Part shown: piece after piece, positions 6,995-25,362 of the stretch
Position numbering within the stretch: position 1 is the stretch's first letter
Layout: every line of letters begins with the position of its first letter
Assembly: GCA_041484665.1 (NCBI GenBank)
Contig: JBGPIA010000001.1
Coordinates: forward strand, 512,001 to 576,000
Reading direction: 5' to 3'
DNA: 64,000 nucleotides
Origin: Candidatus Krumholzibacteriia bacterium
GTDB lineage: Bacteria; Krumholzibacteriota; Krumholzibacteriia; JAJRXK01
Notes under the pieces: model-generated
Database searches by the model: none
What the model was told of the DNA's origin: nothing
Seen by the model: the letters and a program-made list of their open reading frames with translations, nothing else
Position numbers and translations under genes: made by a program

Positions 6995-8070
6995 GGCGTC
7001 CTCCCGCGGGCTGGCGTGGTGGCAGCCGCGCCGGCAGCCGCGCCAGCCGCTTCGCTCTCGGCCGTGTCGGGGACCGCGCTCGCCCCCCCGCTCGCAGGCC
7101 CACTTGGTGCGCCACCCGCGCAGTCACCCCCCACCTCAGACGAGAGGGGCGGCAGCACGGCCTGCGGGTGCAGCAGCTGGAAAAGGCGTGCCGCCGCGCA
7201 AGCCACGCGCGGTCCCGGGATCTCCGCGCCATCGAACGTGCAGATCTCGACACGTGCCGCGGGCAGCCCGCCGGCGCGCCAGATGCGCCGTGCGCGGGCG
7301 AGCGCCTGCTCATCCACGCGCTCGCCGGGCCGCAGCTCGATCACGACCTCCGGCGGGTCGGCAATCAGCCGCTCGAGCCCCAGCTCCAGGTAGCCGTGCG
7401 TCTGCTCCGCGCTGACGCTCGCACCGCCAGCGATGGCGACCAGATCGGTCAGGAACGCTCCCTTGCCCGCCGTCCAGATCGACGCCAGCCGTTGCGGATC
7501 GCGCCCGAGCACCAGGAGCGTGCGCGGGTGCGGCAGACCCATGGCAGCCCGGCCGATGGCGTCGAGATCGCCGCGGATGCGAGCGACCACCGCCGGAGCG
7601 TGCGGCGCCGCGCCGCCGCTCAGCAGCGAGTCGAGCGCTGCGAAGCCCGCGAGCACCGTCGCCAGGTCGGTGTCCATGGTGACCACGCCCAGACGAATCC
7701 CGTTGGCGCGCGCCAGGTCGCGCAGCTGGGGGCTCTCACCCTGCACCACCAGCAGGCCGGGCCGCAGCGCCAGGATCCGCTCGAGGTTGGGATCGACCAT
7801 CCCTCCCACGCGCGGGCGGCTCAGCAGGGAAGGCGGCCACACGGTGTAGTCGTCGATGGCGACGATGTTCGCTTCGAAGCCCAACGCCCAGGCCGCCTCG
7901 TTCAGATTGGGAGCGAAGAGGATGACGCGGGACGGCGCGCCCGCGGGTGCGCTGCGCTGTCCGCGTGCCGCGAGCCGGTGCATCCCCAGCGACGCGAGCA
8001 CGCCGGCCAACGCGATGGCCAGCACGGCCAGCGGGCCCGTCAGGCGGGTGATGGAGGCGCGTGGATGCAT
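6991..8070 (-). CDS. Helical-backbone substrate-binding protein (BtuF-like)
   Basis: RVILFAPNLNE, VGGMVDPNLERILALRP, IPGPR; N-terminal hydrophobic segment; start uncertain. Confidence 0.8.
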   Translation of the reverse strand: MHPRASITRLTGPLAVLAIALAGVLASLGMHRLAARGQRSAPAGAPSRVILFAPNLNEAAWALGFEANIVAIDDYTVWPPSLLSRPRVGGMVDPNLERILALRPGLLVVQGESPQLRDLARANGIRLGVVTMDTDLATVLAGFAALDSLLSGGAAPHAPAVVARIRGDLDAIGRAAMGLPHPRTLLVLGRDPQRLASIWTAGKGAFLTDLVAIAGGASVSAEQTHGYLELGLERLIADPPEVVIELRPGERVDEQALARARRIWRAGGLPAARVEICTFDGAEIPGPRVACAAARLFQLLHPQAVLPPLSSEVGGDCAGGAPSGPASGGASAVPDTAESEAAGAAAGAAATTPARGRTP

Positions 8071-8291
8071 CACCGTGCGGGTGCGGGCGGGCGGCGGGCG
8101 GCGGGGCGTCGTCCGCAACCCGTGCCTACGCTACCATGGATGTGGCGGCCTGCCCATCGGGGGCCGCCGGTGGGCGCGCGCCCGGGGGCGGGCCGCCCAC
8201 GATCGCGCTACCATGCTGGAGTCGCGTCCGTCCGCCCGTGCAGTCGCGCCGAGCGGACGCACTGCGCTCCACGCCAGGAGGTCGGCACGCT

Positions 8292-9488
8292 ATGCGTTGG
8301 GTCTCGGTGGTCAGTGATCGCCCGGAGCTCGCGGATTCGTTGGCGGAGGCCACCGCCGCCATTGCGAGGCAGCTGGGACCCGGCTCCCCCGACCTGCTGG
8401 TGGTGTTCGTGAGCCAGGAGCACCTGTTCCACTACGGCCAGGTGGTCCCGACCCTGCAGAAGAGCCTCGCGCCGGGCACGCTGATCGGCTGCTCGGCAGG
8501 CGGCGTGATCGGCGGCGGGCGGGAACTGGAGCGGACCCCGGGGATCACGCTGACGGCTGCAATGCTTCCCGGCGTGCAGCGGCGCCTGGTCCACCTCACG
8601 AATGAGGACCTGCCTCCCCTCGACGGCAGCCCGCGCGCCTGGGTCGATACGCTGGGGGTCGAACCCGGGGACAACCCCAGCTTCATCGTGCTGGCGGACC
8701 CGTTCTCGTGCGACGCGCGCACGTTGCTGTCGGGGCTCGACTTCGCCTACGGCCAGGCGGTGAAGGTCGGCGGGTTGGCCAGTGGAGCGCAATCTCCGGG
8801 TGGCAACGCGTTGTTCGCCGACCAGCGCACGCTACGCCAGGGGGCGCTGGTACTGGTGCTGACGGGCGACGTCGTCGTGGACGCCATCGTGGCGCAGGGG
8901 TGCAAGGCCATCGGCAGGTTGGGCCGCGTGACGCGCTGCGAGGGCCATGTGCTCCACGAGCTCGACGGTCGCCCGCCGCTCCTGGTGCTCCAGGAGACCT
9001 ACGAGCAGCTCGACGGACGTGACCAGGAGCTGGCGCGCACTGCTCTGTTCCTGGGGCTCTCGATGGACGAGTTGCGCGAGCACCCCGGGCCGGGCGACTT
9101 CCTGATCCGCAACGTCCTTGGCCTCGACCCGCAGACCGGCACGATCGCCGTCGCCGCCGAGTTGCGCCAGGGGCAGACCGTCCAGTTCCACGTGCGTGAC
9201 GGCGTGGCGGCGGCGCAAGACCTCAACGCCGTTCTCGGCCGCTATCGCGAGCGGCTACCCGATGTCAGTCCCCACGGTGCGCTGCTCTTCTCGTGCCTGG
9301 GGCGTGGCGAGCATCTTTACGGGGAGCCCGACCACGACAGCCGCGCGTTCGCACGTCGCATCGGCGACGTCGCCCTGGGCGGATTCTTCTGCAACGGCGA
9401 GATCGGACCCGTGGGAGAGACGACCTACCTGCACGGCTACACGAGCGCATTCGGTCTCTTCCGGCCGCGTTCGGGATCGCGCGCCTAG
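8292..9488 (+). CDS. FIST N/FIST C sensory-domain protein
   Basis: IGCSAGGVIG, GGLASG, VAQGCKAIG, FSCLGRG, GFFCNGEIGP..LHGYT; AGGAGG RBS. Confidence 0.92.
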   Translation: MRWVSVVSDRPELADSLAEATAAIARQLGPGSPDLLVVFVSQEHLFHYGQVVPTLQKSLAPGTLIGCSAGGVIGGGRELERTPGITLTAAMLPGVQRRLVHLTNEDLPPLDGSPRAWVDTLGVEPGDNPSFIVLADPFSCDARTLLSGLDFAYGQAVKVGGLASGAQSPGGNALFADQRTLRQGALVLVLTGDVVVDAIVAQGCKAIGRLGRVTRCEGHVLHELDGRPPLLVLQETYEQLDGRDQELARTALFLGLSMDELREHPGPGDFLIRNVLGLDPQTGTIAVAAELRQGQTVQFHVRDGVAAAQDLNAVLGRYRERLPDVSPHGALLFSCLGRGEHLYGEPDHDSRAFARRIGDVALGGFFCNGEIGPVGETTYLHGYTSAFGLFRPRSGSRA

Positions 9489-9551
9489 CAGCGCGTGGTC
9501 CGCAGCGCGTGGTCCGCAGCGCGTGGTCCGCAGCGCGTGGTCCGCAGCGCG
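9488..9551. repeat. Perfect 14-bp tandem repeat GCAGCGCGTGGTCC x4 plus a partial copy, between convergent genes
   Basis: Units at 9488, 9502, 9516 and 9530; partial GCAGCGCG at 9544. Confidence 0.95.
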
Positions 9552-9592
9552 CGTGGCAGCCCCCGACCGTCGAAGCGACGGGCAGCCCGCCG

Positions 9593-11341
9593 CTAGGGGT
9601 TCGCGGCCAGGACCAGCTTGCGCGTCAGCTCACGGCCGCTGAAGCGCAGCCGAGCCAGGTACACACCCTGCGCCGCAGGCGCGCCCGCCCTATCGCGGCC
9701 GTCCCAGATCACTGCATGCGCCCCGGCCGACAGCGCCCCGTCGACGAGCGTGGCGACCGTGCGCCCGCGCGTGTCGTGCACGGTGAGCAGCACGTCGCCT
9801 CCCCGGGGCAACCCGAAGCGGATCGACGTCTGGGCGTCGAATGGGTTCGGCGTGCCCGGCAGCAGCGCCAACTCCCCCGCGTCCCACGCACCAGCCAGGT
9901 CGGACTCCAGAACCGCAGGGCCGTGCCAGCGCGAGGCGCCGCCGTCGACCTGCTCGAGGAAGTACTCGGTGCGCGACAACGGCGCTGAAGGGTCCGTGAA
10001 CTCCATGTGCGCGGCGCCGAGCAGCGGCCGCGGTGTGATGCGCTCCAGCGTGGCGCCGGACGTCGCGGCGTCGCGCCGGTGAACGTGGAAGATCGCGTGC
10101 GGCCCGTCGCCCGCGAGCTCCCAGCGCAAGAGCGCGCGGCCTTCCTCCCGCCTCGCCGAGAACGCGCTCAGCAGTACGGGCACCGCTCTCCCGTCCCAGC
10201 GGGCGATTCCCGGTGATGGCAGCCCACCGGCCACGCTGAAATCGCCGCCGACGTACAGATGGCGATCGAGGACGACCAGCGTGCGCGCCCAGTCGTCGGC
10301 GCCCTCACCCAGCGGCGTCCAGCCCGTTCCGTCCCAGCTGGCGAGGTAGTTGACGAATTGCCCGTCCGCGCGAACGAAGTTGCCCGCGGCGATCAGCTCC
10401 CCTCCGTATTCGGCGAGCCCGAAGACCCATGTGGAGTCCTGGCCCCGGATTCCCACTCCCATCCGCTGCCAGGCCGTGCCGTCCCAGCGCGCGATCCCCA
10501 GCACCGAATTCCCGTCGGCCTGCGTGAACGCCCCGCCAGCGATGAGGTCGCCGCGGTAGACGGCCAGCGCGAACACCCAGGAGATGGGATGGCCGCCGGA
10601 CAGCCCGCTCCCGATTGTCTCCCACCATGCGCCGTTCCACAGTCCCACGCCCCCGGCGAGCTGGCGTTCGACGCGAGTGAAATACCCGCCCACCGCGAGT
10701 GCCTCCCCGTAGACCGCCAGCGCGCTGGCGCCGCCGTTGATTCCGCCACCCAGCGTGTGGAAGTCAACGCCCGTCCAGCGCGCGATGAACGGCAGGCTCT
10801 GCTCGTTCACCTGGGTGAAGCGGCCGGCGACGATGAGCTCCCCCTGGAAGGAGATCGCGGCGAGCAGGATGCCATTGAAGACCGCGTCAAAGGTCGTCCA
10901 CGAGTCGCCGTTCCAACGCGCGACGCTGCTCGCCGCCGCGCCCCCCGCGCGGGTGAACTGTCCCACGGCGATGAGGTCGTCGTTGTGGACGGTCAGCCCG
11001 GCCACGTAGGGGGTGAATCCCGGGGCATCGGCCCCGTTGGAAATCCCCTCGCCCAGCGGCGCCCAGGCCGCGCCGTCCCAGCGGGCGATGTTGTTCGCCT
11101 CGACCGGACCGGCGTGGCTGAACGCCCCGCCGGCGATGAGCTGCCCGTGGTAGACGGTCAGCGCGAAGACCGTGCCGTCGAATCCTTGCGCCTGGAACCC
11201 ATCCCACCACTGGCCCGGGGTGGCAGGCGCGGGCGCGGGCGCCAGCAGCACGACCGCCGTCGTCCAGACGCACAACGAACGGGCCAGCGCGGATTGCAGC
11301 CGACCTGGCCACCAGCGGATCGGGGTCGGAATCATGGGCAT
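9593..11341 (-). CDS. Secreted beta-propeller repeat protein (IARWDG/AGGxF repeats) with C-terminal FlgD-Ig/PNPF domain
   Basis: About six repeats of LxVYxGxLIAGGxF...IARWDGxxW; PNPF...WDGRD...GVYLARL tail; signal peptide; start uncertain. Confidence 0.8.
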   Translation of the reverse strand: MPMIPTPIRWWPGRLQSALARSLCVWTTAVVLLAPAPAPATPGQWWDGFQAQGFDGTVFALTVYHGQLIAGGAFSHAGPVEANNIARWDGAAWAPLGEGISNGADAPGFTPYVAGLTVHNDDLIAVGQFTRAGGAAASSVARWNGDSWTTFDAVFNGILLAAISFQGELIVAGRFTQVNEQSLPFIARWTGVDFHTLGGGINGGASALAVYGEALAVGGYFTRVERQLAGGVGLWNGAWWETIGSGLSGGHPISWVFALAVYRGDLIAGGAFTQADGNSVLGIARWDGTAWQRMGVGIRGQDSTWVFGLAEYGGELIAAGNFVRADGQFVNYLASWDGTGWTPLGEGADDWARTLVVLDRHLYVGGDFSVAGGLPSPGIARWDGRAVPVLLSAFSARREEGRALLRWELAGDGPHAIFHVHRRDAATSGATLERITPRPLLGAAHMEFTDPSAPLSRTEYFLEQVDGGASRWHGPAVLESDLAGAWDAGELALLPGTPNPFDAQTSIRFGLPRGGDVLLTVHDTRGRTVATLVDGALSAGAHAVIWDGRDRAGAPAAQGVYLARLRFSGRELTRKLVLAANP

Positions 11342-11798
11342 CACCCTCGGGGCAGCGGGTTCTGCGATCGAGCGCGCGTCTCGGCCGGTGAGGGAGCGGC
11401 CGACCGGACGGCGAGCAAAGGGCCCCACGGACATGTCGCGGCGGATCGTGGCGCAGGGTGCCGCGGCGTGTCGCGTTCTGCACGGACCGCGCCGACGCTA
11501 TCCCGCACGTCCCGCCAGGAGTGTGGCGTTGCACCGCCCCCGCCGCCCGCGGGACAGCGGAGTGGGCGGAAGCATACTCCCCGAATGGGAATCGGGGGGA
11601 GTTTCCTTACGCTGGGCGAGCGCTTGCCGCAAGCGACCCCGGGCCGTGCCCGCCCGCGCAAACGCGGGGCGTGAAGGCATCCCCCGGCCGGTCCCGGGGC
11701 ATCCCTCTTGCCCTGGTGGAGCCCGGGAGGGGTCGCGGGGCGCGCCCCGCCGCCGCTGCCTGCCACCGCGCACCACCGCAGCCCGAAAGCACGGCACC

Positions 11799-12212
11799 AT
11801 GAGCGCCGAGGCACCCAGCGTGTTGATCGTGGAGGACGACCCGGGAATCCGCACCCTGCTGTCGCGCCTGGTCGCACGCCTGGGACTGACCTGCCGCGTC
11901 GCGCAAGACGGCGAGGAGGCGCTGCTCGCCGTCGCCGAAGGCACGCCCGATCTGATCATCCTCGATCTCATGATGCCCGGGATGAACGGGTTCCAGTTCC
12001 TGCGCGCCTACCGGGAGGGCGGCGCGCTGGAGACGCCGGTCATCGTGGTGACGGCCAAGGACGACGCGTTCGACCAGTTCTGGGCCCACAAGCTCGGTGT
12101 ACGCCACTTCCTGGTGAAGCCCTTCGCACCGCAGGCCATCCTCGGGGCGATCGAGGAGGCGCTGAGCAGCACCCCCCACGACGCCAACAGCCCGCCCTCC
12201 TCCCCACCGTGA
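11799..12212 (+). CDS. Single-domain response regulator (receiver)
   Basis: IVEDD, LDLMMPGMNG (phospho-Asp), VTAK, KPF. Confidence 0.92.
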   Translation: MSAEAPSVLIVEDDPGIRTLLSRLVARLGLTCRVAQDGEEALLAVAEGTPDLIILDLMMPGMNGFQFLRAYREGGALETPVIVVTAKDDAFDQFWAHKLGVRHFLVKPFAPQAILGAIEEALSSTPHDANSPPSSPP

Positions 12213-15200: not shown

Positions 15201-15610
15201 CGCGCCAGGGCGGCGCGGGCGCCGACTGGGTGATCGAGGCCCTGGGCGACCCGGCGGTGCGCGTGCGCAAGGAAGCCGTGCGCCTGTCCACCGCCGCGGG
15301 CGTCGATTTCGGCGGCCACGAGCGCGCGCGAGAGGAGACGTTGCTGCAGGCACTGGACGATCCCGCCCCCGCGGTACGCGCCCGGACGGCGCTGGCGGTG
15401 GCACGCCTGGGCCTTGCGCGCGCGCGACGAGCGCTGACCGCCATGGAGCGGGACCCCGACGCGCGCGTCGCGCGGGCGGCCCGCCGGGCACTCGCGGCGC
15501 TGGCGGCCGCGGTGGCCGGGACAGCGCCGGCGGCGGCGCCCCGGTCGTCGGTGTCTGCGGCGGCGCCGCCCGCGGTGACCGCGCCGGAGCAGGAGGTGAC
15601 GGCGCCATGA
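12209..15610 (+). CDS. Large HEAT-repeat protein (~1133 aa) with N-terminal transmembrane helix
   Basis: Many L.DP..xVR..A..AL repeats; GTGA overlap with the receiver gene and ATGA overlap with the GT2 gene. Confidence 0.85.
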   Translation: MIPTVWLLAAAGVLLLGQILLIAVLIARNGLVEWRLRRRCGHSTLLASLCESLDAGGSAHVRAELSRRELLVDVSALEAWLDLVASRGEDPALLPPEEYERVGLVDRYLRQLQRARGWSARAAAAEVLGWTHSPRAVPALLEAALDERGEEPAVRAVALRALGRIRHPRAVEPLISALASSDTWFPPRAAEMLARIGAPAVEPLARLVGDACAPLTTRRWAAQVLGEVRDRRALHALHAALGDLDAELRAKAARALGNLGQERSIGPLLDRLLADPIPFVRSCVARALGQLSTGRTVGFLVEALADPEWWVRLRAVEALAQLGEPARQVLHGALHDSDPQVAREAGRALEGLGVVAELLDSLRREGYSPELTELLVDIGRAGNIDALLDALDSDDVEFLTSVTRIIARVGDARAAPGLVRLLRTRSEPGLQARVIDALRRAGAADLVGEILPLLASPNEWVRKTSLDYLERFADTDVLPRVAPLLQDPNPWAREAALKLMERLPPPPALAWQIESALGDPYVFVRAQAVRTLCACDRLELLFQDGTPVIEEAPEVREAALQGLARSASPKVLPVALALFPKADTDALDQLTQLVREAARRDPVVSLVQVREGGDVAHRWALATIAPELGDAPLPVALLALAGDEDPRVRAAAVASLLRRPGAGETERACVVDALADPHPLVARGALRALALLPRGELDRHLRRGLSHAEASVAVDAALAIALRLGRQSVRALMAAVSDRRPSVRLAALIGLVYQGERTALPSWLAELRAPASLQLLHRWRETQHPLLSRILGTSREARATLEQRLLTARSPQEAEDQLLRELESNPDAEIRKLAAEGLSTLQSRRAVSLMLPTSQRDPAPEVRIAALRFLVRENAFGHRRRYLETGLRDPVAAVQVAAAHLSVVLPDHEAIPLLVEHLETRLPALRAALTDMLAGRAEEGVEAILDAVMGRPMTVELMLGLVAVLRQVPLPLSDEVLEVLLRHRWAEVRAEALAALIPRQGGAGADWVIEALGDPAVRVRKEAVRLSTAAGVDFGGHERAREETLLQALDDPAPAVRARTALAVARLGLARARRALTAMERDPDARVARAARRALAALAAAVAGTAPAAAPRSSVSAAAPPAVTAPEQEVTAP

Positions 15611-18057
15611 CCTGGCAGCTGTGGCTGGTCCGTAGCATCGAGCTGTTAGTCGTCACCTACACGGTCACCTACGCGCTGGCGAACATCGTCCTGATGGTCG
15701 TGGGCTTCAATCCGGTGCGCGAACAGGTGCGCGGCATCGCCTTCGAAGACCTGGACATGCTGGACGGCAACGGCAACGTGCCGTCGGTCGCCGTGCTCGT
15801 GCCCGCCTACAACGAATCGCTGATGATCGTCGAGGCCGTGCGGGCTCTGACCGAGCTCGACTATCCCCAGATCGAAATCATCATCGCCAACGACGGCTCG
15901 ACCGACGACACGCTGCAGCGCCTGCGCGAGGCCTTCGCGATGCGGCGGCGCGACGTGTCGATGCGCAGCGAGCTCCAGACAGCACAGGTGCGGGGCGTGT
16001 ACGAGGCCACCTACCCGTTCCCGAAGACCGTGCTGCGCCTGCTGGTCGTGGACAAGGAGAACGGCGGCCGCGCGGATGCGCTGAACGCCGCGCTCGACGC
16101 CGCCGTATCGCCCTACTTCATCACCGTGGACGCCGATTCGATCCTCGACGCGCAGGCCCTCAAGCAGGTGATGCGCATCTTCCAGGACCGGCCCGACGTC
16201 CTGGCCGCGGGCGGGCAGGTCGGCATCGTCAACGACTGCACCGTGGAGCGGGGCCGGATCGTGCGCAAGGCGCTGACGCACCGCTACGTGCCCCTTTGCC
16301 AGACGCTGGAATACCTGCGCTCGTTCACCACCATGCGCACCGGATGGACCCGGCTGGACAGCCTGGTGATCCTCAGCGGCGCGTTCCTGGTCATGTCGCG
16401 GGCTGCGGCGATCCGCGTCGGCGGATTCCTCACCGGCCGCGTGCGCTACCGTCTGCTTGACGAGTACGTCGGCCCCGAGGGGGCCACCATTTGCGAGGAC
16501 ATGGAGATGATCGTGCGACTGCACCGCTACGAGCGGGAGCACGGCCGCAAAGCCCGCATCGTCCACACGCCCGTGCCCGTATGCTGGACGGAGGTGCCCG
16601 CCACCCTGTCCAGCCTGGCCAAGCAGCGGCGCCGTTGGCATCGCGGCCTCATCGAGATCCTGCTGCACCACCGCCGCATGGTGCTCAACCCCTGTTACGG
16701 CTCCGTCGGGCTGTTCGCGCTGCCCTACTTCGTCCTCTTCGAGCTGGCCGGCCCTTACGTCGAGGCGGCCGGCTACGTGCTACTGCCCCTGTTTGCGCTG
16801 TGGGGCATCCTCGACCCGCTGCGCTGCATCCTGATCACCGCCGTCGCGCTGGCGTTCGGCGTGCTGCAATCGATGGTGGCGGTGTTGTGCGCCACGTGGC
16901 TCGAGCCGGTCAGCCCGGCCGGCACCCAGGTGCGGTCGCTCACCGGGATGGACCGCTGGCGCGACCGGCTGCTGTTGTTGGCAGCGTGCTTCCTGGGCGA
17001 GCTGGGCTTCCGCCAGCTCACTGTCTGGTGGCGGCTGCGCGGCACGTGGGACTTCCTGCGCGGCCGCACCGACTGGGACAAGTTCGAGCGGGCCGGCTTC
17101 CGCCAGGCGGCAGGAGCGGCGGGGGCAGCGTTGTTGGCCGCGTGGGTGCTGGCAGCGCCGCACCCAACGCGTGCGCAGCAGGCAAGCCCGGTGGTGCTGG
17201 TCGGGGCGAACGTCGCGACACCCGCAAAGGCCGGCGCGCCGATACCCGCAAAGGCCGGCGCGGCAATAACTGCGCAAGCCAGCGCAGCGGCGCGTACGGA
17301 GACCACCCCCGCGGCAGCCGGCGCCGAGCAGCCGCGCCGCCCGGACCACGCGCTCCAGGAGCGCGAGGTCACCGTCAACGGCGGCAGTGAGCATCGGATC
17401 AGTCTGGGCACCGGATGGTGGATGGAGGCCACCTCACGTTGGAAGTGGGACGACGGGCAGGTGCGTTGGGTGGGCCTCTCACGAATCGAGCGCCGAGGCC
17501 TCGCCGATGAGGGCCTGCTGGCCGGGATCGCGCTGAAGCCGTGGAAGCGCGCCGGATTCGCCGTCGAGCTGCGCGCCGCGCCGGGCGCAGAGGTCTCGCC
17601 GCGCTGGTTCCTGTCGGCGGAGGCGGAGGCCGCCTTCCACGAGCGCATCAGCAGCACGACGATCGCGCGCCTCTCCGCCTACCGCGACGTGACGGTGCTC
17701 GATCTGGCCACCGGTACGGTGCTCTACCTGCGCAAGGAGCGATGGCTCGCAACGCGTGCGCACCTGTTCAGTACATGGTTCGACAGCGGCGCACGCGCTG
17801 CGCTCTTGGGCGTGTCGGGCGTCTTCTCCACGCCGCTGGGCGCGAGCGAGCTGCGCCTGCAGGCGAGCTACGGCGGGGAAAGCTACCTCGCGGGCTACCA
17901 GGCGGAGGTGCGGGAGCTGCGCGCCTGGTCGCTGGGCGGGTCGCTGCGACGGCCGGTCGGCGACCGCTGGACGCTGGAGCTCGGAGCGGCCTACCGCCGG
18001 CCCGAGCTGGGCGCGCGGGAGATCGACGTGAGCGGTGGCGTGCGATGCCGCTGGTAA
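15607..18057 (+). CDS. Processive GT2 glycosyltransferase (PgaC/IcaA-like) fused to a C-terminal YaiO-like outer-membrane beta-barrel
   Basis: PAYNE, NDGSTD, KENGGRADALN, VDADS, EDME, QRRRW, TM helices; after ~aa 585 amphipathic strands ending VSGGVRCRW. Confidence 0.8.
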   Translation: MTWQLWLVRSIELLVVTYTVTYALANIVLMVVGFNPVREQVRGIAFEDLDMLDGNGNVPSVAVLVPAYNESLMIVEAVRALTELDYPQIEIIIANDGSTDDTLQRLREAFAMRRRDVSMRSELQTAQVRGVYEATYPFPKTVLRLLVVDKENGGRADALNAALDAAVSPYFITVDADSILDAQALKQVMRIFQDRPDVLAAGGQVGIVNDCTVERGRIVRKALTHRYVPLCQTLEYLRSFTTMRTGWTRLDSLVILSGAFLVMSRAAAIRVGGFLTGRVRYRLLDEYVGPEGATICEDMEMIVRLHRYEREHGRKARIVHTPVPVCWTEVPATLSSLAKQRRRWHRGLIEILLHHRRMVLNPCYGSVGLFALPYFVLFELAGPYVEAAGYVLLPLFALWGILDPLRCILITAVALAFGVLQSMVAVLCATWLEPVSPAGTQVRSLTGMDRWRDRLLLLAACFLGELGFRQLTVWWRLRGTWDFLRGRTDWDKFERAGFRQAAGAAGAALLAAWVLAAPHPTRAQQASPVVLVGANVATPAKAGAPIPAKAGAAITAQASAAARTETTPAAAGAEQPRRPDHALQEREVTVNGGSEHRISLGTGWWMEATSRWKWDDGQVRWVGLSRIERRGLADEGLLAGIALKPWKRAGFAVELRAAPGAEVSPRWFLSAEAEAAFHERISSTTIARLSAYRDVTVLDLATGTVLYLRKERWLATRAHLFSTWFDSGARAALLGVSGVFSTPLGASELRLQASYGGESYLAGYQAEVRELRAWSLGGSLRRPVGDRWTLELGAAYRRPELGAREIDVSGGVRCRW
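17217..17288. repeat. 24-bp tandem repeat x3 (TPAKAGAP/IPAKAGAA/ITAQASAA) in the GT2-barrel linker
   Basis: GACACCCGCAAAGGCCGGCGCGCC, GATACCCGCAAAGGCCGGCGCGGC, AATAACTGCGCAAGCCAGCGCAGC. Confidence 0.75.
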
Positions 18058-18088
18058 TCGCGCACCCCAAGCGACGCGGCGCGCCGGA

Positions 18089-18442
18089 CTAGGCCTTGGC
18101 CTGTCCCACGAAGCTGCGCAGCGCCGCGTCCACGTCGTCGTACTCCTCGAACAGGTCGAGGATCCGGGTGACGTAGGCCACCTTGCGATTGCGCTCGCTG
18201 AGGCCGGCCAGCTTGAGCAGGGCCCCTTCGCGGCTGCAGGTGCTGTAGGCGCTCACCAGCGTGCCGAGGCCGATGCTGGCGATCAGCGGTACGCCACTCA
18301 GGTCGAAGACGAAGTGCCGCTCCCCCGTGCCGAGCCACTGGCGGAGGTCCGTGCGCAAGCGCTCGTTGGAAGGATCGCCCGTCCAGTTGCCCGTGACGCG
18401 CACGATCCGCACCCCGCCCGATTGGTCGCTCGTATAGATCAT
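18089..18442 (-). CDS. STAS-domain anti-sigma factor antagonist
   Basis: VFDLSGVPLIASIGLGTLV, LKLAGL, TRILDLF; GAAAGGA RBS; TAGAAT -10 at 18484-18489. Confidence 0.88.
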   Translation of the reverse strand: MIYTSDQSGGVRIVRVTGNWTGDPSNERLRTDLRQWLGTGERHFVFDLSGVPLIASIGLGTLVSAYSTCSREGALLKLAGLSERNRKVAYVTRILDLFEEYDDVDAALRSFVGQAKA

Positions 18443-18727
18443 GGCCGTCCTTTCGGGGATGGGCCCTCGGGTCTTTGGACTGGATTCTAGGGGAAAGCGG
18501 GGGGGGGGCGCCAGCGGGGCGGTGGGTCGGGGCGGCGGGTCCCGCCGGCCAAAGCGGTTCCGGCCAACCGGGGGTGCCGCGGTCGCCGGGCGGGAACCGG
18601 TTGCGCCGCGGAGGCTGCCCAACCCGGTCCGATCGAGGGCGCACACCGGGCACGGGGCGGATACGCCCCGGCGCCCGCAACCGGCTGCCGCTTTGAGGCG
18701 GCGGTGGCCGCGCGGTGACGCACCGGG

Positions 18728-19933
18728 TTATTCGTACCTTATGGCGTCGATCACGTCGATGTGAGCTGCCTTCAGCGCCGGGTACAGCCCCGCCACGATC
18801 CCCACGCCGGCGCAGATCAGGAAGCTGTATCCCACCCATTGGTAGGGGAAGGCCGCGAGCTGGGGAAGCGTGAAGCGCCCGGCCAGCGCCCCGCCGGCGA
18901 CGCCGATCACCCCACCCAGGATCCCCAGCACCGCCGACTCGATGAGGAACTGCCGCAGGATGTCGCCGCGCTTGGCGCCGATGGCGCGGCGCACGCCGAT
19001 CTCCCGGGTGCGCTCCACGATCGTCACCAGCATGACGTTGGCGATGCCAATGCCCCCTACCACCAGCGACACGAATGCGATGAACAGGATCAGGCGGGCG
19101 ACCTCCTGGTTGGTGTCGCGCATCGCAGCCAGGAACGTGTCTTGCTTGCGGATCCCGAAATCGTTGGGCTGATCGTCGCGCAGGCGGTGATTGGAGCGCA
19201 GCGTGCTCTCGATGTCGAAGAAGGCCTCCTGGATCGCGCCTGGGTTCTTCACCTGCGCCCAGAGCATCGACACGTAGTCGGCGCCGAACAGGCGCTGCTG
19301 CGCCGTGGCCAGCGGCACGAACACCTGCTCGTCGGGATTGCGGAAACCGCTGCCCTTCGGCGGCAACGTGCCGACCACCGTGAAGCGCAGGTCCTTGATC
19401 GTGATCGTGCTGCCCACGGCGCCGCCGTTGGGGAACAGCTCCTTCACGACGTCGGAGCCGAGCACGGCAAGGCGCTGGCCACGCATCGCCTCCTCCTCGG
19501 TGAACCAGCGTCCCTCGGCCGTGATGTACTTGTTGACCTGCTCGTAATCGGGCAGCGTGCCGGTGATGCGCGTATTCTGGTTGAGATCCTGGAACTGGAC
19601 CTGCGCGTTGCCGGAGTACTCGGGTACGACCGCCGCGATGACCTTGCTGCGCGCCAGGATGTCGCGCCCATCTTTTTCGGTGAGGTTCTGCCAGCTCACC
19701 CCCGCGCTGACTCCGCCGTGCATGTGCGCGCCGCCGGGGAAGACCAGCAGGACGTTGGCGCCCAGCGACTCCAGCTGTGCACGGATGCGGGCCTGGGCCA
19801 CATCGCCGAGCATGACCACGTAGAGCACCGCGGTGATGCCCACGGCGATGCCCAGCAGCGTCAGCACGCTGCGCAGGACGTTGTGTCGCAGACTGTCGAC
19901 GGCGACGGGTAGGTCGCGCCAGAACGTCCTCAT
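18728..19933 (-). CDS. MacB-like ABC transporter permease (no ATPase domain)
   Basis: RSVLTLLGIAVG, VGGIGIANVMLVTIVERTREIGVRRAIGA, QFLIES, GLYPA. Confidence 0.92.
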   Translation of the reverse strand: MRTFWRDLPVAVDSLRHNVLRSVLTLLGIAVGITAVLYVVMLGDVAQARIRAQLESLGANVLLVFPGGAHMHGGVSAGVSWQNLTEKDGRDILARSKVIAAVVPEYSGNAQVQFQDLNQNTRITGTLPDYEQVNKYITAEGRWFTEEEAMRGQRLAVLGSDVVKELFPNGGAVGSTITIKDLRFTVVGTLPPKGSGFRNPDEQVFVPLATAQQRLFGADYVSMLWAQVKNPGAIQEAFFDIESTLRSNHRLRDDQPNDFGIRKQDTFLAAMRDTNQEVARLILFIAFVSLVVGGIGIANVMLVTIVERTREIGVRRAIGAKRGDILRQFLIESAVLGILGGVIGVAGGALAGRFTLPQLAAFPYQWVGYSFLICAGVGIVAGLYPALKAAHIDVIDAIRYE

Positions 19934-21141
19934 CGCGGTCCGCCCCCGGGCGGGCGCGCGCCCCCGCTGCTGCCGCTTCCGGTGACGTTGAACGGGCGGT
20001 TCTGCCGCATGCGGTCTTGCATCTGTTGCTGATCCGCGAACGCGCGGCTGGCCAGCGCCACCTTGAGCTGGTCGCCCTCCTTGATCCCGTCCAGCACCTC
20101 GACGTCGGAGCCACTGTGGATGCCGACTTTGATCGCGCGCTCCTCGAAGCCCGCGGGGGTCTTCACCAGCACCGTGCGCTCTTCGGTTGGGCCGCGCGTG
20201 CCGGGCGGCAGCGCCTGCAGCGCCTCGGCGGGCGCCAGTAGCGCCTCGTCCTTGCGCAGGAGTTGGACCGTGACATTGCAGTTCATCCCGCTGCTCAGGA
20301 TCCCCTCGGGGTTCTCCACCTCGATCAGGGCGTCGAACTGCGTCACGTTCTGCACGACCTTCGCCTCGGGCGCGATACGCACCACCATGCCGGTGAACTG
20401 GCGCTGTGGATAGGCGTCGGCCAGGATATCGGCCTTCATGCCCACGCGGATGCGGCCGATGTCGATCTCGTTCACGGCCGCGGTCACCTGCACGCGGGAC
20501 ATGTCGGCGATGGCCGCGATGAGGGTGCCCCCGCTGACCGAGCTGGTGGCGGAGCTGATGATCTGCCCCTTCTCCACCGCCTTCTGCAGCACGATCCCGC
20601 CCTGGGGAGCGCGCACGGTGGTGTCATCGAAGCGCTCTTGCGTGCGCTCGGCCTCGGTCTGCGCCCGCAGCAGGCTGGCGCGGGCGCGGGCCGTGGCCAA
20701 CGCCGAGTTGTCCAGGTCCACCTCGCTCACGATCTTCTTGTCGAACAGCTCGCGCTGGCGCTGCTCCTCGCGTTCGGTCTGGCGCAGCTCGATCTGGGCG
20801 ATCTCGAGGTCGGCCTTGGCCCGCGCCAGGTCGGCGCGGGCATCGGTGGCGTCCAGCCGCGCGATCAGCTCACCGCGACTGATGTGCTGTCCCTCGACGA
20901 TGGGCAGCTCCAGCACCTCGCCGGAGGCCTTGCTCTTGATCTCGACGCGGTTGACGGGCTCCACCACACCGGTCGCGTTGACGGACAGCTCGAGCGGGCC
21001 GCGCCGCACCGTTACCAGCCGGTACGAGTCGTCACCACCGGAGTTGTCATCCCCCTTGGCTCCCGTATCCTGCGCCCGCCAGACGCCGATGCCTCCGCCC
21101 ACCACCACCAGCGCTCCGGCCAGGATCCACCATCGTTTCAT
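19930..21141 (-). CDS. MacA-like periplasmic adaptor (membrane fusion protein)
   Basis: ATGVVEP..VEIKSKASG, helical hairpin, VRAP.GGIV, VNEIDIG. Confidence 0.9.
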   Translation of the reverse strand: MKRWWILAGALVVVGGGIGVWRAQDTGAKGDDNSGGDDSYRLVTVRRGPLELSVNATGVVEPVNRVEIKSKASGEVLELPIVEGQHISRGELIARLDATDARADLARAKADLEIAQIELRQTEREEQRQRELFDKKIVSEVDLDNSALATARARASLLRAQTEAERTQERFDDTTVRAPQGGIVLQKAVEKGQIISSATSSVSGGTLIAAIADMSRVQVTAAVNEIDIGRIRVGMKADILADAYPQRQFTGMVVRIAPEAKVVQNVTQFDALIEVENPEGILSSGMNCNVTVQLLRKDEALLAPAEALQALPPGTRGPTEERTVLVKTPAGFEERAIKVGIHSGSDVEVLDGIKEGDQLKVALASRAFADQQQMQDRMRQNRPFNVTGSGSSGGARPPGGGPR

Positions 21142-21287
21142 GTCGTCGTCCCCCGTGGCTCGAAGGTTCGGCGCCTGGACCCGAGCCGGCGCGCAGCCAA
21201 ATCAGGAGGGTGCAGGCTTTGGGTCAGGCCAGCGCGCGGCTGCGTCGTGCCTCCGCGCGCCCCGTATCAGCTTGCGCACGGCCCGTG

Positions 21288-22586
21288 TCAAACCGGCGCG
21301 CCGGGCTCCCAGCGCAGATCCAGCGGCCCGAACACCTTCGCCGGAAAGACGCACGGAACCACTCCCAGCAGGAACTGCCGGCGCTTGTATTCATGATGGT
21401 TGCGGTAGTCGCGGCTGTGCACCGTGGCCAGGAAGCTCTCCATGGTGAAGATTTGCAGCTCGACCCCGAACAGATATGGCTGCGCTCCCTCCCCGTTGTC
21501 ACCCGGATAAAGGATGTCCACGTCCTCCTTGAAGACGTGGAAACCTTCGGCGCTGAACCGGTTGAGCTGGGAGCGGTCCTGGGGATGGCGGAACGTGTCC
21601 ACCTGGTTGCGGAAGGAAAATGGTCCGCCCAGGACCTGGTGGAGGAGGTCGGCCAGCCGGTAGACCTCCGGCTCGCTGCGCACGATGAACTTCGCGCCAA
21701 GGATGTCGGTGATATCCACGGGATTGTTGATCCCCTTGCGCAGCATCTTGGACAGGATCGAAGCGGAGCGGTGGCGCTCCATCCCCGGGTAGCGCTGCCG
21801 CTCGTCCACTTCGTAGTCGTGGCGCCCGGTGTCGTAGTCGTACCCGGCGCTCTCCTTCTTGAAACGCGTATCGAAGTGGTAGATCTCCAGATCGTAGGTG
21901 CCGCCGGGCAGATCGCGCACGATGCGCTGCACGTGGAAGTGCCAGCACTCGACGCCGTTGCGCAGCGCGCGGACGTCTTCCACCAGGCGCAGATCTCCGC
22001 CGGAGAGGTCGTAGCAGAGCTCGTTGTCGTGCTGCTCGACGACGTGGCGCCATAGCTCGCGGTCCAGCAGCTCCAGCAGGTAGCGCCGGTGCCGCGGGCC
22101 GTCCTGGATGACGCGCGTGTGGTCGATCTGGATGAGCAGCTTGGCCAGGTAGAGCTTGCGCTGCACCTCGAAAACGCGGCGGTGGTCGCGGGTGGCGAAC
22201 AGCATCTCCACCAGGCGGCGCAGGTCGTTGGACGCCTCGACCTCCGGATCGGGCCGGCAGTGGTCGCGGTATTCGGGCGGCAAGAGCGTCACCAGATCGC
22301 GCACGTAAGCGCTGGCGTCGTGGAGGTAGCTGGCCAGGATGCGCTCGTTGACCTCCGGCGGATGCTCCCGTCCCAGCGGATGGAGCAGGCGGTTGAGCAT
22401 CTGCTGGTAACGCCAGCCGTGTCGGATGTACTCGCGGAATAGCCGGGCGTACGAGCGCAGGGCCGCGCGGTCGTTGCGTGGCAGGTCGGGGTCCAGGAAT
22501 GGGTGCGCGGAGTAGTCGGGTGCGGTTGCAGCGACCGGCTGCGGCGGCCGCACGGGTGCGGAAGCCGTCGTGATGCGGTCGGCCAT
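21288..22586 (-). CDS. RelA/SpoT-synthetase-like nucleotidyltransferase, resembling the TIGR04552 family
   Basis: SILSKMLRK, DITDILGAKFIV, FGVELQI, HHEYKRRQ. Confidence 0.65.
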   Translation of the reverse strand: MADRITTASAPVRPPQPVAATAPDYSAHPFLDPDLPRNDRAALRSYARLFREYIRHGWRYQQMLNRLLHPLGREHPPEVNERILASYLHDASAYVRDLVTLLPPEYRDHCRPDPEVEASNDLRRLVEMLFATRDHRRVFEVQRKLYLAKLLIQIDHTRVIQDGPRHRRYLLELLDRELWRHVVEQHDNELCYDLSGGDLRLVEDVRALRNGVECWHFHVQRIVRDLPGGTYDLEIYHFDTRFKKESAGYDYDTGRHDYEVDERQRYPGMERHRSASILSKMLRKGINNPVDITDILGAKFIVRSEPEVYRLADLLHQVLGGPFSFRNQVDTFRHPQDRSQLNRFSAEGFHVFKEDVDILYPGDNGEGAQPYLFGVELQIFTMESFLATVHSRDYRNHHEYKRRQFLLGVVPCVFPAKVFGPLDLRWEPGAPV

Positions 22587-22643: not shown

Positions 22644-24968
22644 CTAGCGGGTCAACACCAGACGGCGGGAGCTGGTTCCGTCGGGGGTCACCAGTGCATA
22701 GAAATAGGCACCGCTGCCGACCGCAAGTCCATTCTGGTCGCGGCCGTCCCAGTGGGCCTGATGCTCGCCAGCCGGGAGCTCTCCGTCCACGAGCACCCGC
22801 ACCAGTCGGCCCTGCGGGTCGTAGAGCGAAAGCCGCACCCGGGCTGGGTGGGGGAGGTCGAAGAGAATGGTGGTGCTGGGGTTGAACGGATTGGGGAAGT
22901 TCTGGCCCAGCGCCGGCCGCTGCCGGGGAGCCGGCCCGCCGCCCGCGACGGCATAGACCGTGGCGCTGGCCAGGGCGTCGCCGCCCTGGACTGGCACGAG
23001 CAGCTGGTAGGCGTAGGTGCGACCGGGCTGGACGGCGCGGTCGAGCGCGCTGCCACTGCCGCCGCGATCGTCGATGGGCAGCGCCAGCGGCACCAGGCGC
23101 GCAACATCGCCCACGGCCTGCACCACGGCGCGCTGGACCCGGACCGCCGAGGCAGCGAGGTCGCCGGACACGCGCCACTCCAGCCGGATGCCGTCCGATT
23201 GCGGCTGTGCCGTGAAGCTCTCCAGGGCAACCGGAAGGGGCAGTGCGCTGCCCCGGCCCTCGATCAGCCGGTAGAAGTGATCCGCCGACACGCCCGAGAA
23301 CACCTCTTCCGCCCCGCACGGCCAGCGCACTCGCACCTCCGTGATCGCGGTCACCTGACCCAGCCCGAACTCCACATCCAGGCTGTTCTGGCTGAGGTAG
23401 CTGCTGCCGGCCTCGATCTCGCGCATCTGCGTCGTGCCGCCGGCCGTGAGGTAGACGCGCGCACCGATCGCGCAGCGGTTGCAGCCCAGGCCCGGCTGGT
23501 GCTCGCCGCCGCCGATGAGCTTGAATTCAGCCCAGTGGTTGCCGCTGTCTTGATCGTTGCGGTAGAGCTGGCAATGCCCTTCGTAGAGCGCGGCCCACGG
23601 AGCGACGAGCGGATCGAAGAAGCTGTTGTTCGTGACAGCCACGTCGAGATCGCCGTCGCGGTCGAAGTCGGCGGTGGCGAGTCCTCGCCCCATGTTGGTG
23701 TCGGCAAACGCGGCCGCGAGGCTCACGTCGGTGAAGGTCCAGTCGGGCGCCCCGCTGTTCAGGTAGACCTTGTTGGGGATGCCGGTCGGCTGGTTGTTTG
23801 TATAACCGTTGACGAAGCCGCTGGCGAAGATCAGGTCGAGGTCACCGTCGTTGTCGAGGTCGCAGAAGTCCGCCCCCCAGCAGTTGAGCCCCCACTTGAC
23901 GCCCTTCTCCACGGCGCGATTGGTGAACCGCCACCCGCCGCCGACCTGGGGGCCCTGGTTCTCGTAGAAAGCGTTGCCGTTGTAGATCGTGGTGTAGATG
24001 TCGAGGTAACCGTCGTTGTTGTAATCGCCGACCGCCACGCCCATGTCCATGCTGTACGGGTCGGCGCTGGAGGCACCGCCGGCGACCTTGTACGTTCTGG
24101 CCACCTCCACGAACGTGAACCCCGCAGCCCGCCCCTGGTTCTCGAAGAGATAGTTGGGCCCGAAGTCGTTGGTGACGTAGATGTCCAAGTCGCCGTCGTT
24201 GTCGAAGTCGAGGAATACGGGCTGGAACCCGAATTCCTGGTGGCCGACGGGCAGGTCGCCCGTGCGCTCGAAGAAGTCGCCCGAGAGGTTATGGAACAGC
24301 TGGTCGGGTTGGTCGAGGTAGTTCGCGACGTAGAGGTCGACGTAGCCGTCCTGGTCGTAGTCGCCGAACGCCACGCCCATCGACTCCGGCTGGATCGGCT
24401 GGCCGGCCGGCAGCAGCGGGTCCAGCCCGAAGTGCACCGATTGCTCCGACAAGACGTTGCCTCCGCCAACGAAGAACTGGGGTTCGGCGAAGAAGTTCGC
24501 GATGGCGAGGTCGAGCGTCCCGTCGTTGTTCACGTCAGCCAGCGCCAGCCCGTCGGCGACGCGACTGGTGGCCACGCCCCAGGCCTGCGAGACGTCGGTG
24601 AACGTCCCATCGCCGTTGTTGAGCATCAGGTAGTTGTGCGCCGGCGTGCCCGCCCGATTCTTGATGCTCCCGTTGACGACGATCATGTCCGGCCAGCCAT
24701 CGTCGTTGACATCGGCCCAGGCCACGCCGGGCCCGAAGGCGTCCGGCCATTCCTGCGGGTCGCAGGGGTCGGGGGAGCAGGGCAGGAGGAATCCGCGGGA
24801 GTCATGGGTCAGCGTCATGGGCTGGCCCTGGCCGTCCTTCAAGGCGCTAGCGGAGATCTCACTGAAATGGAGCGATGCCGCAGCCGGTGGCGACGCCAGA
24901 AGAAAGCAGACCACCACGCTGAGCACGGGCGCCACTCGAGCGGCGCGCGGGGCGAGCAACTTCAGCAT
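22644..24968 (-). CDS. Secreted FG-GAP repeat/ASPIC-UnbV (CRTAC1-like) protein with C-terminal FlgD-Ig/PNPFNP domain
   Basis: Repeated DxDxDGxLD loops, AIGARV..GSSYLSQ..FGLG..VRWP, NFPNPFNP tail. Confidence 0.88.
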   Translation of the reverse strand: MLKLLAPRAARVAPVLSVVVCFLLASPPAAASLHFSEISASALKDGQGQPMTLTHDSRGFLLPCSPDPCDPQEWPDAFGPGVAWADVNDDGWPDMIVVNGSIKNRAGTPAHNYLMLNNGDGTFTDVSQAWGVATSRVADGLALADVNNDGTLDLAIANFFAEPQFFVGGGNVLSEQSVHFGLDPLLPAGQPIQPESMGVAFGDYDQDGYVDLYVANYLDQPDQLFHNLSGDFFERTGDLPVGHQEFGFQPVFLDFDNDGDLDIYVTNDFGPNYLFENQGRAAGFTFVEVARTYKVAGGASSADPYSMDMGVAVGDYNNDGYLDIYTTIYNGNAFYENQGPQVGGGWRFTNRAVEKGVKWGLNCWGADFCDLDNDGDLDLIFASGFVNGYTNNQPTGIPNKVYLNSGAPDWTFTDVSLAAAFADTNMGRGLATADFDRDGDLDVAVTNNSFFDPLVAPWAALYEGHCQLYRNDQDSGNHWAEFKLIGGGEHQPGLGCNRCAIGARVYLTAGGTTQMREIEAGSSYLSQNSLDVEFGLGQVTAITEVRVRWPCGAEEVFSGVSADHFYRLIEGRGSALPLPVALESFTAQPQSDGIRLEWRVSGDLAASAVRVQRAVVQAVGDVARLVPLALPIDDRGGSGSALDRAVQPGRTYAYQLLVPVQGGDALASATVYAVAGGGPAPRQRPALGQNFPNPFNPSTTILFDLPHPARVRLSLYDPQGRLVRVLVDGELPAGEHQAHWDGRDQNGLAVGSGAYFYALVTPDGTSSRRLVLTR

Positions 24969-25362
24969 GTGCACCCTTCCGTCGCGGCGAGGTCAGACGG
25001 GGAACCGAGGGCGCCTCGTCCGGGGGTGCGGGGCCCGGAAACCAACCGTCGAGACTGAGGGAGGATACCACGTTCGTGCAGCCGCCCACAAGGCGGGTGG
25101 GAAGTCGGTGTGCGACGGCGCGCGGCAGCGGCAGGCAGTCGGGGAGAATGGTGGGGGCGGCCCGCCTCGGCATGCGACCACCCGGTCTCGCCTTCTGTGG
25201 TTGCGGTGGTGCTGCTCGTCGCGGCCGGGCCCTGCCCCCTCTGCTGCAGGTATCGGCTGCGGATGATCGGAACTTGACCGGTGGACGACGGTAGCGTGCT
25301 GGGTCCCGGTTCGGGCGCGGCCGCACCATCGTGGAGCGGCGTGCCGAGCGCCCCGGCCACGC

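Follow-up and report, generated by a model that had tools for sequence, protein, structure and literature searches.

The 64,000-nt stretch analysed here (the window; positions 512,001 to 576,000 of contig JBGPIA010000001.1, from a Candidatus Krumholzibacteriia bacterium) shows a three-gene operon whose last gene is a single long open reading frame (ORF) encoding an N-terminal family 2 glycosyltransferase (GT2) joined, through a segment resembling a signal peptide, to a C-terminal outer-membrane barrel of the YaiO family. This fusion is real, conserved and recurrent. It follows a gene encoding a response regulator and a gene encoding a HEAT-repeat protein, and the three genes are coupled by a GTGA overlap, whose GTG is probably the start of the HEAT gene, and by an ATGA overlap between the HEAT gene and the fused ORF; AGGAGG precedes the start of the latter at 15591-15596. 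The position of the response regulator is matched in G002, a genome of the same family, and in locus L113, and a gene of 1100-1220 aa with a similar start lies before the GT2 gene in L031, L113, L213, L217 and L218.

The ORF list and the translation show no internal stop in the fused frame, and the fragment 17040-17200, which contains the junction, is bridged by one contig per run in all four sequencing runs, with no differing letters and no gaps. Run X2 may be where the window comes from, and rare variants are lost in contigs, but as far as contigs can tell an assembly artefact at the junction is ruled out by the four bridging runs and by the relatives, which are also fused. Two low-depth joints, X6 16662-17008 and X7 17338-17559 (one contig each, sides of 20-27 letters), probably belong to other organisms. 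The original prediction, made from the letters of this DNA alone, had described one uninterrupted ORF of 816 residues, the absence of an ATG near the junction, a cleavage-like T-R-A site followed by two Gln and a terminal Trp, and had left a lost stop or an indel at the junction to be excluded. All these features are as described, the T-R-A and the two Gln lying at aa 521-525 (nt 17167-17181) and the nearest ATG being 42 codons before W490, and neither a lost stop nor an indel is seen in the contigs.

Table 1. Features of the fused ORF and its operon in the window.
Feature	Position (nt)	Strand	Basis or remark
Response regulator, single-domain, operon gene 1	11799-12212	+	PF00072, E 1.5e-27
HEAT-repeat protein, about 1133 aa, one N-terminal membrane helix	12209-15610	+	HEAT_2, 10 stretches; helix aa 8-26
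Fused ORF: GT2 synthase, predicted internal signal peptide, linker, YaiO-family barrel	15607-18057	+	816 aa
Membrane helix 1, aa 14-32, putatively N-out	15646-15702	+	Hydropathy
GT-A core in the cytosol, aa 59-347, containing D,D,D and QRRRW	15781-16647	+	Pfam and motifs
Two membrane-spanning helices, aa 367-398 and 404-429, and an Arg-rich helix, aa 451-484, taken as interface helix 3	16705-17058	+	DSSP of the AlphaFold2 model, charge counts
W-x4-R motif, W490-R495; with the next Arg it would serve as n-region	17074-17100	+	Usual C-terminus of the GT2 family; counterpart of the hyaluronan synthase gating loop
Internal signal-peptide-like segment, aa 499-523	17101-17175	+	h-region at about 507-517, c-region with Pro
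Low-complexity Ala/Pro linker, aa 524-582, longer than that of any relative	17176-17352	+	24-nt tandem duplication, 17216-17262
YaiO-family outer-membrane barrel, 14 strands, ending in Trp, aa 583-816	17353-18054	+	TIGR04390, AlphaFold2, fold search
Contigs bridging the junction	X2 16644-18300; X5 16735-17398; X6 16572-17316; X7 16607-17791		Contig alignment to the window

The N-terminal half (aa 1 to about 498) shows two GT2 domains over their Pfam cut-offs, PF13641 in aa 59-347 (76.3 bits, cut-off 27) and PF00535 in aa 63-215 (74.6 bits, cut-off 23.3), and the motifs NDGS at 95, DADS at 175, EDME at 297 and QRRRW at 340. A structural search with aa 5-488 gave PcManGT as the best match (Z 25.1), followed by hyaluronan synthases (HAS; Z 23.1 and 21.4), all at 15-22% identity and with the HAS and PcManGT scores within 2-4 Z of each other. 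The scores with the PgaC/IcaA model TIGR03937 (106.3 bits) and the BcsA model TIGR03030 (55.5 bits) are below the curated cut-offs of 422 and 699, respectively, no PilZ match appears in the Pfam scan of the ORF, and the AlphaFold2 model and hydropathy indicate only about three membrane-spanning helices. The first description of this half as a complete processive GT2 therefore stands for the domains and the D,D,D and QRRRW motifs, but "complete processive" is too strong in view of the PgaC score and the number of helices. A sequence search of solved structures returned GT-A cores only, with no barrel and no alignment of the gating loop. A lipobox-like LAAC after M448 was discarded, since its hydrophobic run has only six residues and its Cys is also present in unfused proteins.

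The C-terminal half matches the YaiO model TIGR04390 in aa 598-800 with 35.5 bits, against a curated cut-off of 32. The AlphaFold2 model, built from a 13-row alignment, shows 14 strands in aa 583-815, where most 10-residue blocks have a predicted local distance difference test score (pLDDT) of 81-94 and one block has 58, and a fold search with aa 582-816 found OmpG (Z 19.4), a FadL homologue (19.3) and CymA (19.1). The claim that this half is a barrel of amphipathic strands is thus borne out, and in scans with hidden Markov models each half matched its own family, GT2 or YaiO. The Pfam YaiO model PF19413 (gathering score 23.9) gave no match to the window barrel at E 0.01 or 0.1, but it is satisfied by fused barrels from other lineages. 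Among eight relatives of the clade described below, tested with TIGR04390 on C-terminal parts or partial proteins, four score 27-30 or show no match at 1e-5. By these model scores, the barrel of the clade is at the edge of the YaiO family. YaiO clusters of the ESM Atlas, at 0.87, are below 0.9 and were kept as a lead only, not as support.

The fusion is kept in 18 relatives, so the same architecture looked for in related genomes was found and these do not always have two genes. With the window there are 19 sequences: the window, G002, G003, P0003-P0012, P0022, P0027, L031 and three metagenome loci. The 14 that are complete enough for a tree form a single clade with a value of 100 in the Shimodaira-Hasegawa-like approximate likelihood ratio test. 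Both halves are in one frame in two of the nine genomes of the same family (G002 and G003), in three of the 208 genomes of the phylum, including that of the window, and in three of the 80 metagenome loci. The unfused state is the usual one: among 80 genome loci, 77 stop 1-20 residues past W-x4-R-x-G, two are fused and one is frameshifted earlier, in agreement with the earlier remark that the end of the GT2 part resembles the usual C-terminus of its family. In six genomes of family f4, which belongs to the same class, and in two metagenome loci, the barrel is the next gene and has its own start and a signal-like N-terminus. In most of these split loci the barrel gene begins, in the +1 frame, with an ATG 17 nt ahead of the GT2 stop, and the two genes overlap. 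The split f4 genomes are near relatives of the clade on the tree, not its sister group. A small deletion between the overlapping GT2 and barrel genes probably put the signal peptide of the barrel in frame.

Elsewhere in the GT2 family, fusions whose tails match a YaiO model are found in L109 (Thermoanaerobaculia, with TPR), P0039, P0062, P0068, P0098, P0104, P0141, P0189 and P0190, and P0045, P0100 and P0146, without a YaiO match, were on weaker grounds called barrels by a profile made in this analysis (P0045, E 6e-5) or by eye. The cluster of P0039 contains 90 members, and among the 15 listed nine are fused, four are unfused at about 90% identity and two are fragments. On trees of 245 and 61 rows the fused or unfused label changes 11 times, and approximately unbiased tests reject both a single clade of all 27 fused rows (p 2e-46) and a clade uniting that of the window with the P0039 pair (p 9e-6). 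These trees are unrooted and do not strictly separate several gains from one gain followed by many reversions; several independent gains are favoured because the barrels differ and so does their TPR content. Sequencing error could account for seven of the scattered fusions, which are clusters of one member each. The natural HEAT-GT2 fusions P0035 and P0041 show one additional helix ahead of GT2 helix 1, and P0183 (HEAT-GT2-barrel, 1035 aa), without the extra helix needed in such fusions, may be an artefact and was set aside.

In Xenopus HAS1 the cytosolic gating loop, 488-501, lies between interface helix 3 and membrane helix 5 and contains Trp491 and Arg496, according to the available part of its description (bioRxiv 10.1101/2023.05.11.540447). 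The structural alignment of the window GT2 to apo Xenopus HAS1 runs out at residue 483 of the model and 486 of the chain, and W490-x4-R495 thus falls on the HAS gating loop. By this analogy the motif would be cytosolic, and the next hydrophobic segment would run from inside to outside, as a signal peptide requires. The junction reads as a Sec signal peptide also by its composition, since all 19 clade members show basic residues, then a short hydrophobic run and then a small-x-small site. In the window, the predicted cut is after the T-R-A ending at residue 523, between nt 17175 and 17176, and the AlphaFold2 model shows a helix at 498-515. A lipobox Cys, as used by signal peptidase II, is absent from the c-region of the window and none is conserved in the alignment. 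Identity within the clade is 0.28 in the junction, versus 0.62 in the GT2 end and 0.37 in the barrel. Compared with 12 GT2 fusions to non-barrel domains, chosen by eye from long tails, the hydrophobic run is weaker in barrel fusions (median 7-8 versus 11.5 large hydrophobic residues per 21; p 4e-6, or 2e-4 without the clade), and a -3/-1 site is present in 30 of 31 barrel fusions versus five of 12 non-barrel fusions (Fisher p 2e-4, or 0.03 without the clade).

A junction of this kind could also hold an internal translation start from which the barrel is made, the full-length product being of little importance, and in the window AGGAG at 17112-17116 and TTG at 17131 are candidates for it. This is improbable: their spacing is 14 nt, and the TTG is within the h-region, which would leave no basic n-region. 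In several relatives the motif contains a Met (WGxM) from which a plausible signal peptide could begin, but this Met belongs to the GT2 motif, is also found in unfused proteins and is replaced by Phe in the window; a Met ahead of the helix is also present in three of the 15 members of a second fusion described below. The eight fused loci with DNA have no start in common, and in L003 the stretch reaching from 16 codons ahead of the Trp to 39 codons past it contains no ATG, GTG or TTG. The suggestion that the barrel is made only from the AGGAG and TTG start is accordingly not supported.

Between the end of the helix and barrel strand 1 the clade members have 9-70 residues, with a median of 15 and with 20 or fewer in 14 of the 19; the 70 residues of the window are an outlier. 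An extended chain covers 3.5 angstrom per residue and the periplasm is roughly 150-250 angstrom wide. A gap of 20 residues or fewer is too short to cross the periplasm, and the chain most likely needs cutting. A single uncut chain across both membranes, tethering the pore to the synthase, would be conceivable for the window, whose gap would reach about 245 angstrom if fully extended, and TPR repeats precede the barrel in some other lineages (L109, P0098, P0100 and P0146). However, the linker of the window is of low complexity, unconserved and in part a recent tandem duplication, and the minimum of nine residues in the clade makes an uncut chain the least probable of the readings considered here. 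Of the two outcomes that the original prediction had offered, the chain spanning both membranes is therefore not supported, and the cut by signal peptidase I is supported by the conserved fusion and by a junction that is built like a signal peptide and lies on the appropriate side of the membrane.

The same genome contains only one other match to TIGR04390, which is the tail of a 573-aa ORF (G000:C5:218484-220205, minus strand; locus L223 4485-6206). This second fusion shows six membrane helices, a basic linker, a hydrophobic run, A-R-A and a barrel ending in Trp, and its six-helix half belongs to no Pfam family. It has 14 other full-length homologues at 41-49% identity, a strict A-x-A is present in 14 of the 15 versus 7.3 expected by shuffle, and among 19 loci of the phylum three are fused, 14 are split and two have one half. 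The fused form is conserved in the 14 database proteins and in three genomes of the same family. Since the two fusions have N-terminal parts of unrelated architecture, this device is not peculiar to GT2. The second fusion is located in another GT2 operon (G000:C5:216308-223524, minus strand, L223) containing a GT2 gene, a gene without Pfam match which shows repeated short strands, the fusion and a gene encoding a multi-helix membrane protein; a gene that looks integrase-like adjoins it.

The explanation proposed here, with a probability of about 0.75, is that the fused ORF encodes a two-membrane polyprotein from which signal peptidase I releases the barrel. The Sec translocon of the inner membrane would insert the chain as a GT2 that has about three membrane helices, with the W-x4-R gating-loop motif remaining cytosolic. 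The next hydrophobic segment, probably once the N-terminal signal peptide of the barrel gene, would insert with its N-terminus inside and its C-terminus outside and initiate export of the last 293 residues. The cut by signal peptidase I would fall after A523, and the released barrel would be taken by the beta-barrel assembly machinery (BAM) to the outer membrane. The synthase would keep the spent signal as an extra helix at the place of HAS helix 5. Synthase and barrel, together with the HEAT protein and the response regulator, would most likely constitute a minimal system for making a surface glycan and sending it out through the barrel. This role in synthesis and export is less secure than the processing and is proposed by analogy with the Bcs system, whose exporter BcsC is needed for secretion in the portion of the report available (PMC8892547). 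Speculatively, a channel might be completed by the single helix of the HEAT protein together with the signal helix that is retained. Two genes for signal peptidase I and one for BamA, all over curated cut-offs, are present in the genome. Precedents for the cut, as given in the accessible parts of their sources, are LtaS, cut internally by SpsB (PMC12260438), and fused BcsAB, cut into its parts (PMC9757748). The frame has neither stop nor indel, relatives are fused, the barrel is confirmed and no internal start is shared, and so none of the four results named in the original prediction as counting against it appeared.

Several observations weigh against this explanation. The region aa 489-579 of the AlphaFold2 model has a pLDDT below 50, the rule used to recognise signal segments is ad hoc, and the clade members are not independent. 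The site of the window itself is T-R-A and not A-x-A, and enrichment of strict A-x-A, tried as a hallmark of GT2-barrel fusions, was rejected as not above a composition shuffle (12 of 19 in the clade versus 9.7, and five of 12 in the other barrel fusions versus 4.9). A relaxed -3/-1 site is barely above it (19 of 19 versus 16.9, and 11 of 12 versus 9.5). One clade member, L111, shows a frameshift in the last strands of the barrel, at about 1350-1470. As regards export, none of four genomes of f3 relatives with HEAT-GT2 shows a TIGR04390 match, the same GT2 occurs in Bacillota lacking an outer membrane, and the GT2 half has its best fold match in PcManGT, an archaeal mannosyltransferase that is reportedly non-processive. 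A frameshift is also found at about 8280 of L076, in an unfused GT2, and both this and that of L111 may be assembly errors or may mark pseudogenes.

The shuffle results leave some room for a polyprotein cut by another protease (a rhomboid, one of the RseP type, a periplasmic protease or the barrel itself), and the available part of PMC9757748 does not name the enzyme responsible for cutting fused BcsAB. This is as improbable as the internal start, since all 19 clade members keep the n-, h- and c-region order, in which they agree with the signal peptides at the N-terminus of the split barrels, and the second fusion has clear A-x-A sites. The barrel could also be a passenger, never released, degraded or useless, in a fusion that is merely tolerated, and HEAT-GT2 operons without a detectable YaiO gene do occur, as does the broken barrel end of L111. 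This is very improbable, because a terminal W or F is kept in 16 of the 19 barrels at a mean identity of only 37%, and intact barrels so divergent, with a confident fold, indicate long purifying selection. Returning to release by signal peptidase I, the repeated origin of the fusion from overlapping genes fits a tolerated accident as well as a selected 1:1 stoichiometry. An extension of it, unlikely though a little less so than the alternatives above, is that the cut is regulated, as inferred for LtaS: the signal on the gating loop would be exposed to signal peptidase I only while the synthase is in a particular state, one pore would be counted per assembled synthase, the retained signal would be a channel part like HAS helix 5, and two-membrane polyproteins would be a recurring class of bacterial genes.

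Internal cutting of one chain into two proteins is already known. FbcH of Bradyrhizobium japonicum is reportedly a precursor of cytochrome b and c1, polytopic and with an internal signal sequence, whose single gene product is cut into two proteins; both products are said to end in the inner membrane, and its sequence is unrelated to that of the window fusion. Fused BcsAB (AcsAB) of Gluconacetobacter/Komagataeibacter hansenii resembles the window fusion in that a GT2 and an extracytoplasmic partner, normally with a cleavable signal, form one chain cut after translation, as described in the parts available of PMC9757748 and PMC8892547. It differs in that, by the same partial accounts, BcsA and BcsB both remain inner-membrane proteins and the exporter BcsC has a gene of its own, whereas here the released half would be the barrel. 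The window GT2 also lacks PilZ and belongs to another subfamily (CelA, 55 bits versus 699). Neither fused BcsAB nor FbcH is homologous to the window fusion, in which one ORF with a signal-like segment is seen; what would be new in it is the destination of the released half, the outer membrane. In LtaS of Staphylococcus aureus SpsB, a type I signal peptidase, likewise cleaves a polytopic polymer synthase at a point after its membrane domain, but, in the section of the source available (PMC12260438), the cut inactivates LtaS and frees its own catalytic domain in a bacterium without outer membrane, while here a second functional protein would be freed. HAS and PcManGT share with the window GT2 the GT-A core with interface helices, QxxRW and the W-x4-R loop after interface helix 3; HAS, as far as partly available descriptions go, has six membrane helices and its own channel, unlike the about three and the signal helix of the window GT2.

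PgaABCD, Bcs and systems with YaiO beside a GT2 also combine an inner-membrane GT2 and an outer-membrane barrel in one operon, and split relatives of the window fusion have YaiO or TPR-YaiO as a separate gene. In contrast to those systems, the window operon has no TPR scaffold, deacetylase or PgaD-like gene, and contains a HEAT protein, a response regulator and a 14-strand barrel. A role of YaiO as export pore is not established in the literature covered. In that literature, which left supplements and most subscription papers outside its scope, no description was found of an inner-membrane enzyme and an outer-membrane barrel joined by an internal signal, and no paper on a widespread HEAT-GT2 glycan system. 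The xagABC genes of Xanthomonas, named without domains in the available part of PMC3826837, are a lead only and not support.

Outer-membrane barrels are currently taught to begin as preproteins of their own, each with a signal peptide at its N-terminus. If the proposed release is true, an internal signal peptidase cut can deliver a barrel from the tail of a polytopic inner-membrane enzyme, evolution has found this delivery repeatedly, and in one genome it is employed two times, for partners that are unrelated. It would provide a test case for the handover among Sec, signal peptidase I and BAM of a barrel exported co-translationally, expose a blind spot of N-terminal signal predictors and of annotation, and give YaiO, a barrel whose function is unknown, a physical link to a HEAT-GT2 glycan system that is widespread.

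Other architectures are found around the same GT2. About 60 of the homologues P0022-P0170 have 920-1020 aa with the GT2 after about 470 N-terminal residues, and those scanned show HEAT repeats; HEAT-GT2 fusions are thus common and tie the HEAT partner to the enzyme. The HEAT protein has about 1100-1220 aa in the window clade and near relatives versus about 370-400 aa in L109 and in viral loci. In the two viral contigs found (L221 2936-6365 and L222 2794-6245), YaiO, a gene of about 400 aa (with a HEAT match in L222) and the GT2 are separate adjacent genes, and neither shows a fusion. At the same point past the gating-loop motif, other proteins (P0034, P0036, P0042, P0047, P0080, P0091, P0102, P0106, P0130, P0131, P0136, P0143 and P0147-P0149) carry a membrane anchor with SPOR, FecR-TPR or unknown domains, or LtaS-like sulfatase modules, and P0065 and its kin carry a receiver domain.

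The flanks of the window operon (8061-12212 and 18089-22586) show a gene encoding a FIST-domain protein upstream and, downstream on the opposite strand, a short gene that looks STAS-like and a gene encoding a 432-aa protein with a weak RelA_SpoT match; the operon of G002 is apparently flanked likewise on both sides. Two genes on the minus strand, 9593-11434 and 22644-24974, encode secreted-looking repeat-domain proteins whose C-terminal tail looks FlgD/type-IX-like.

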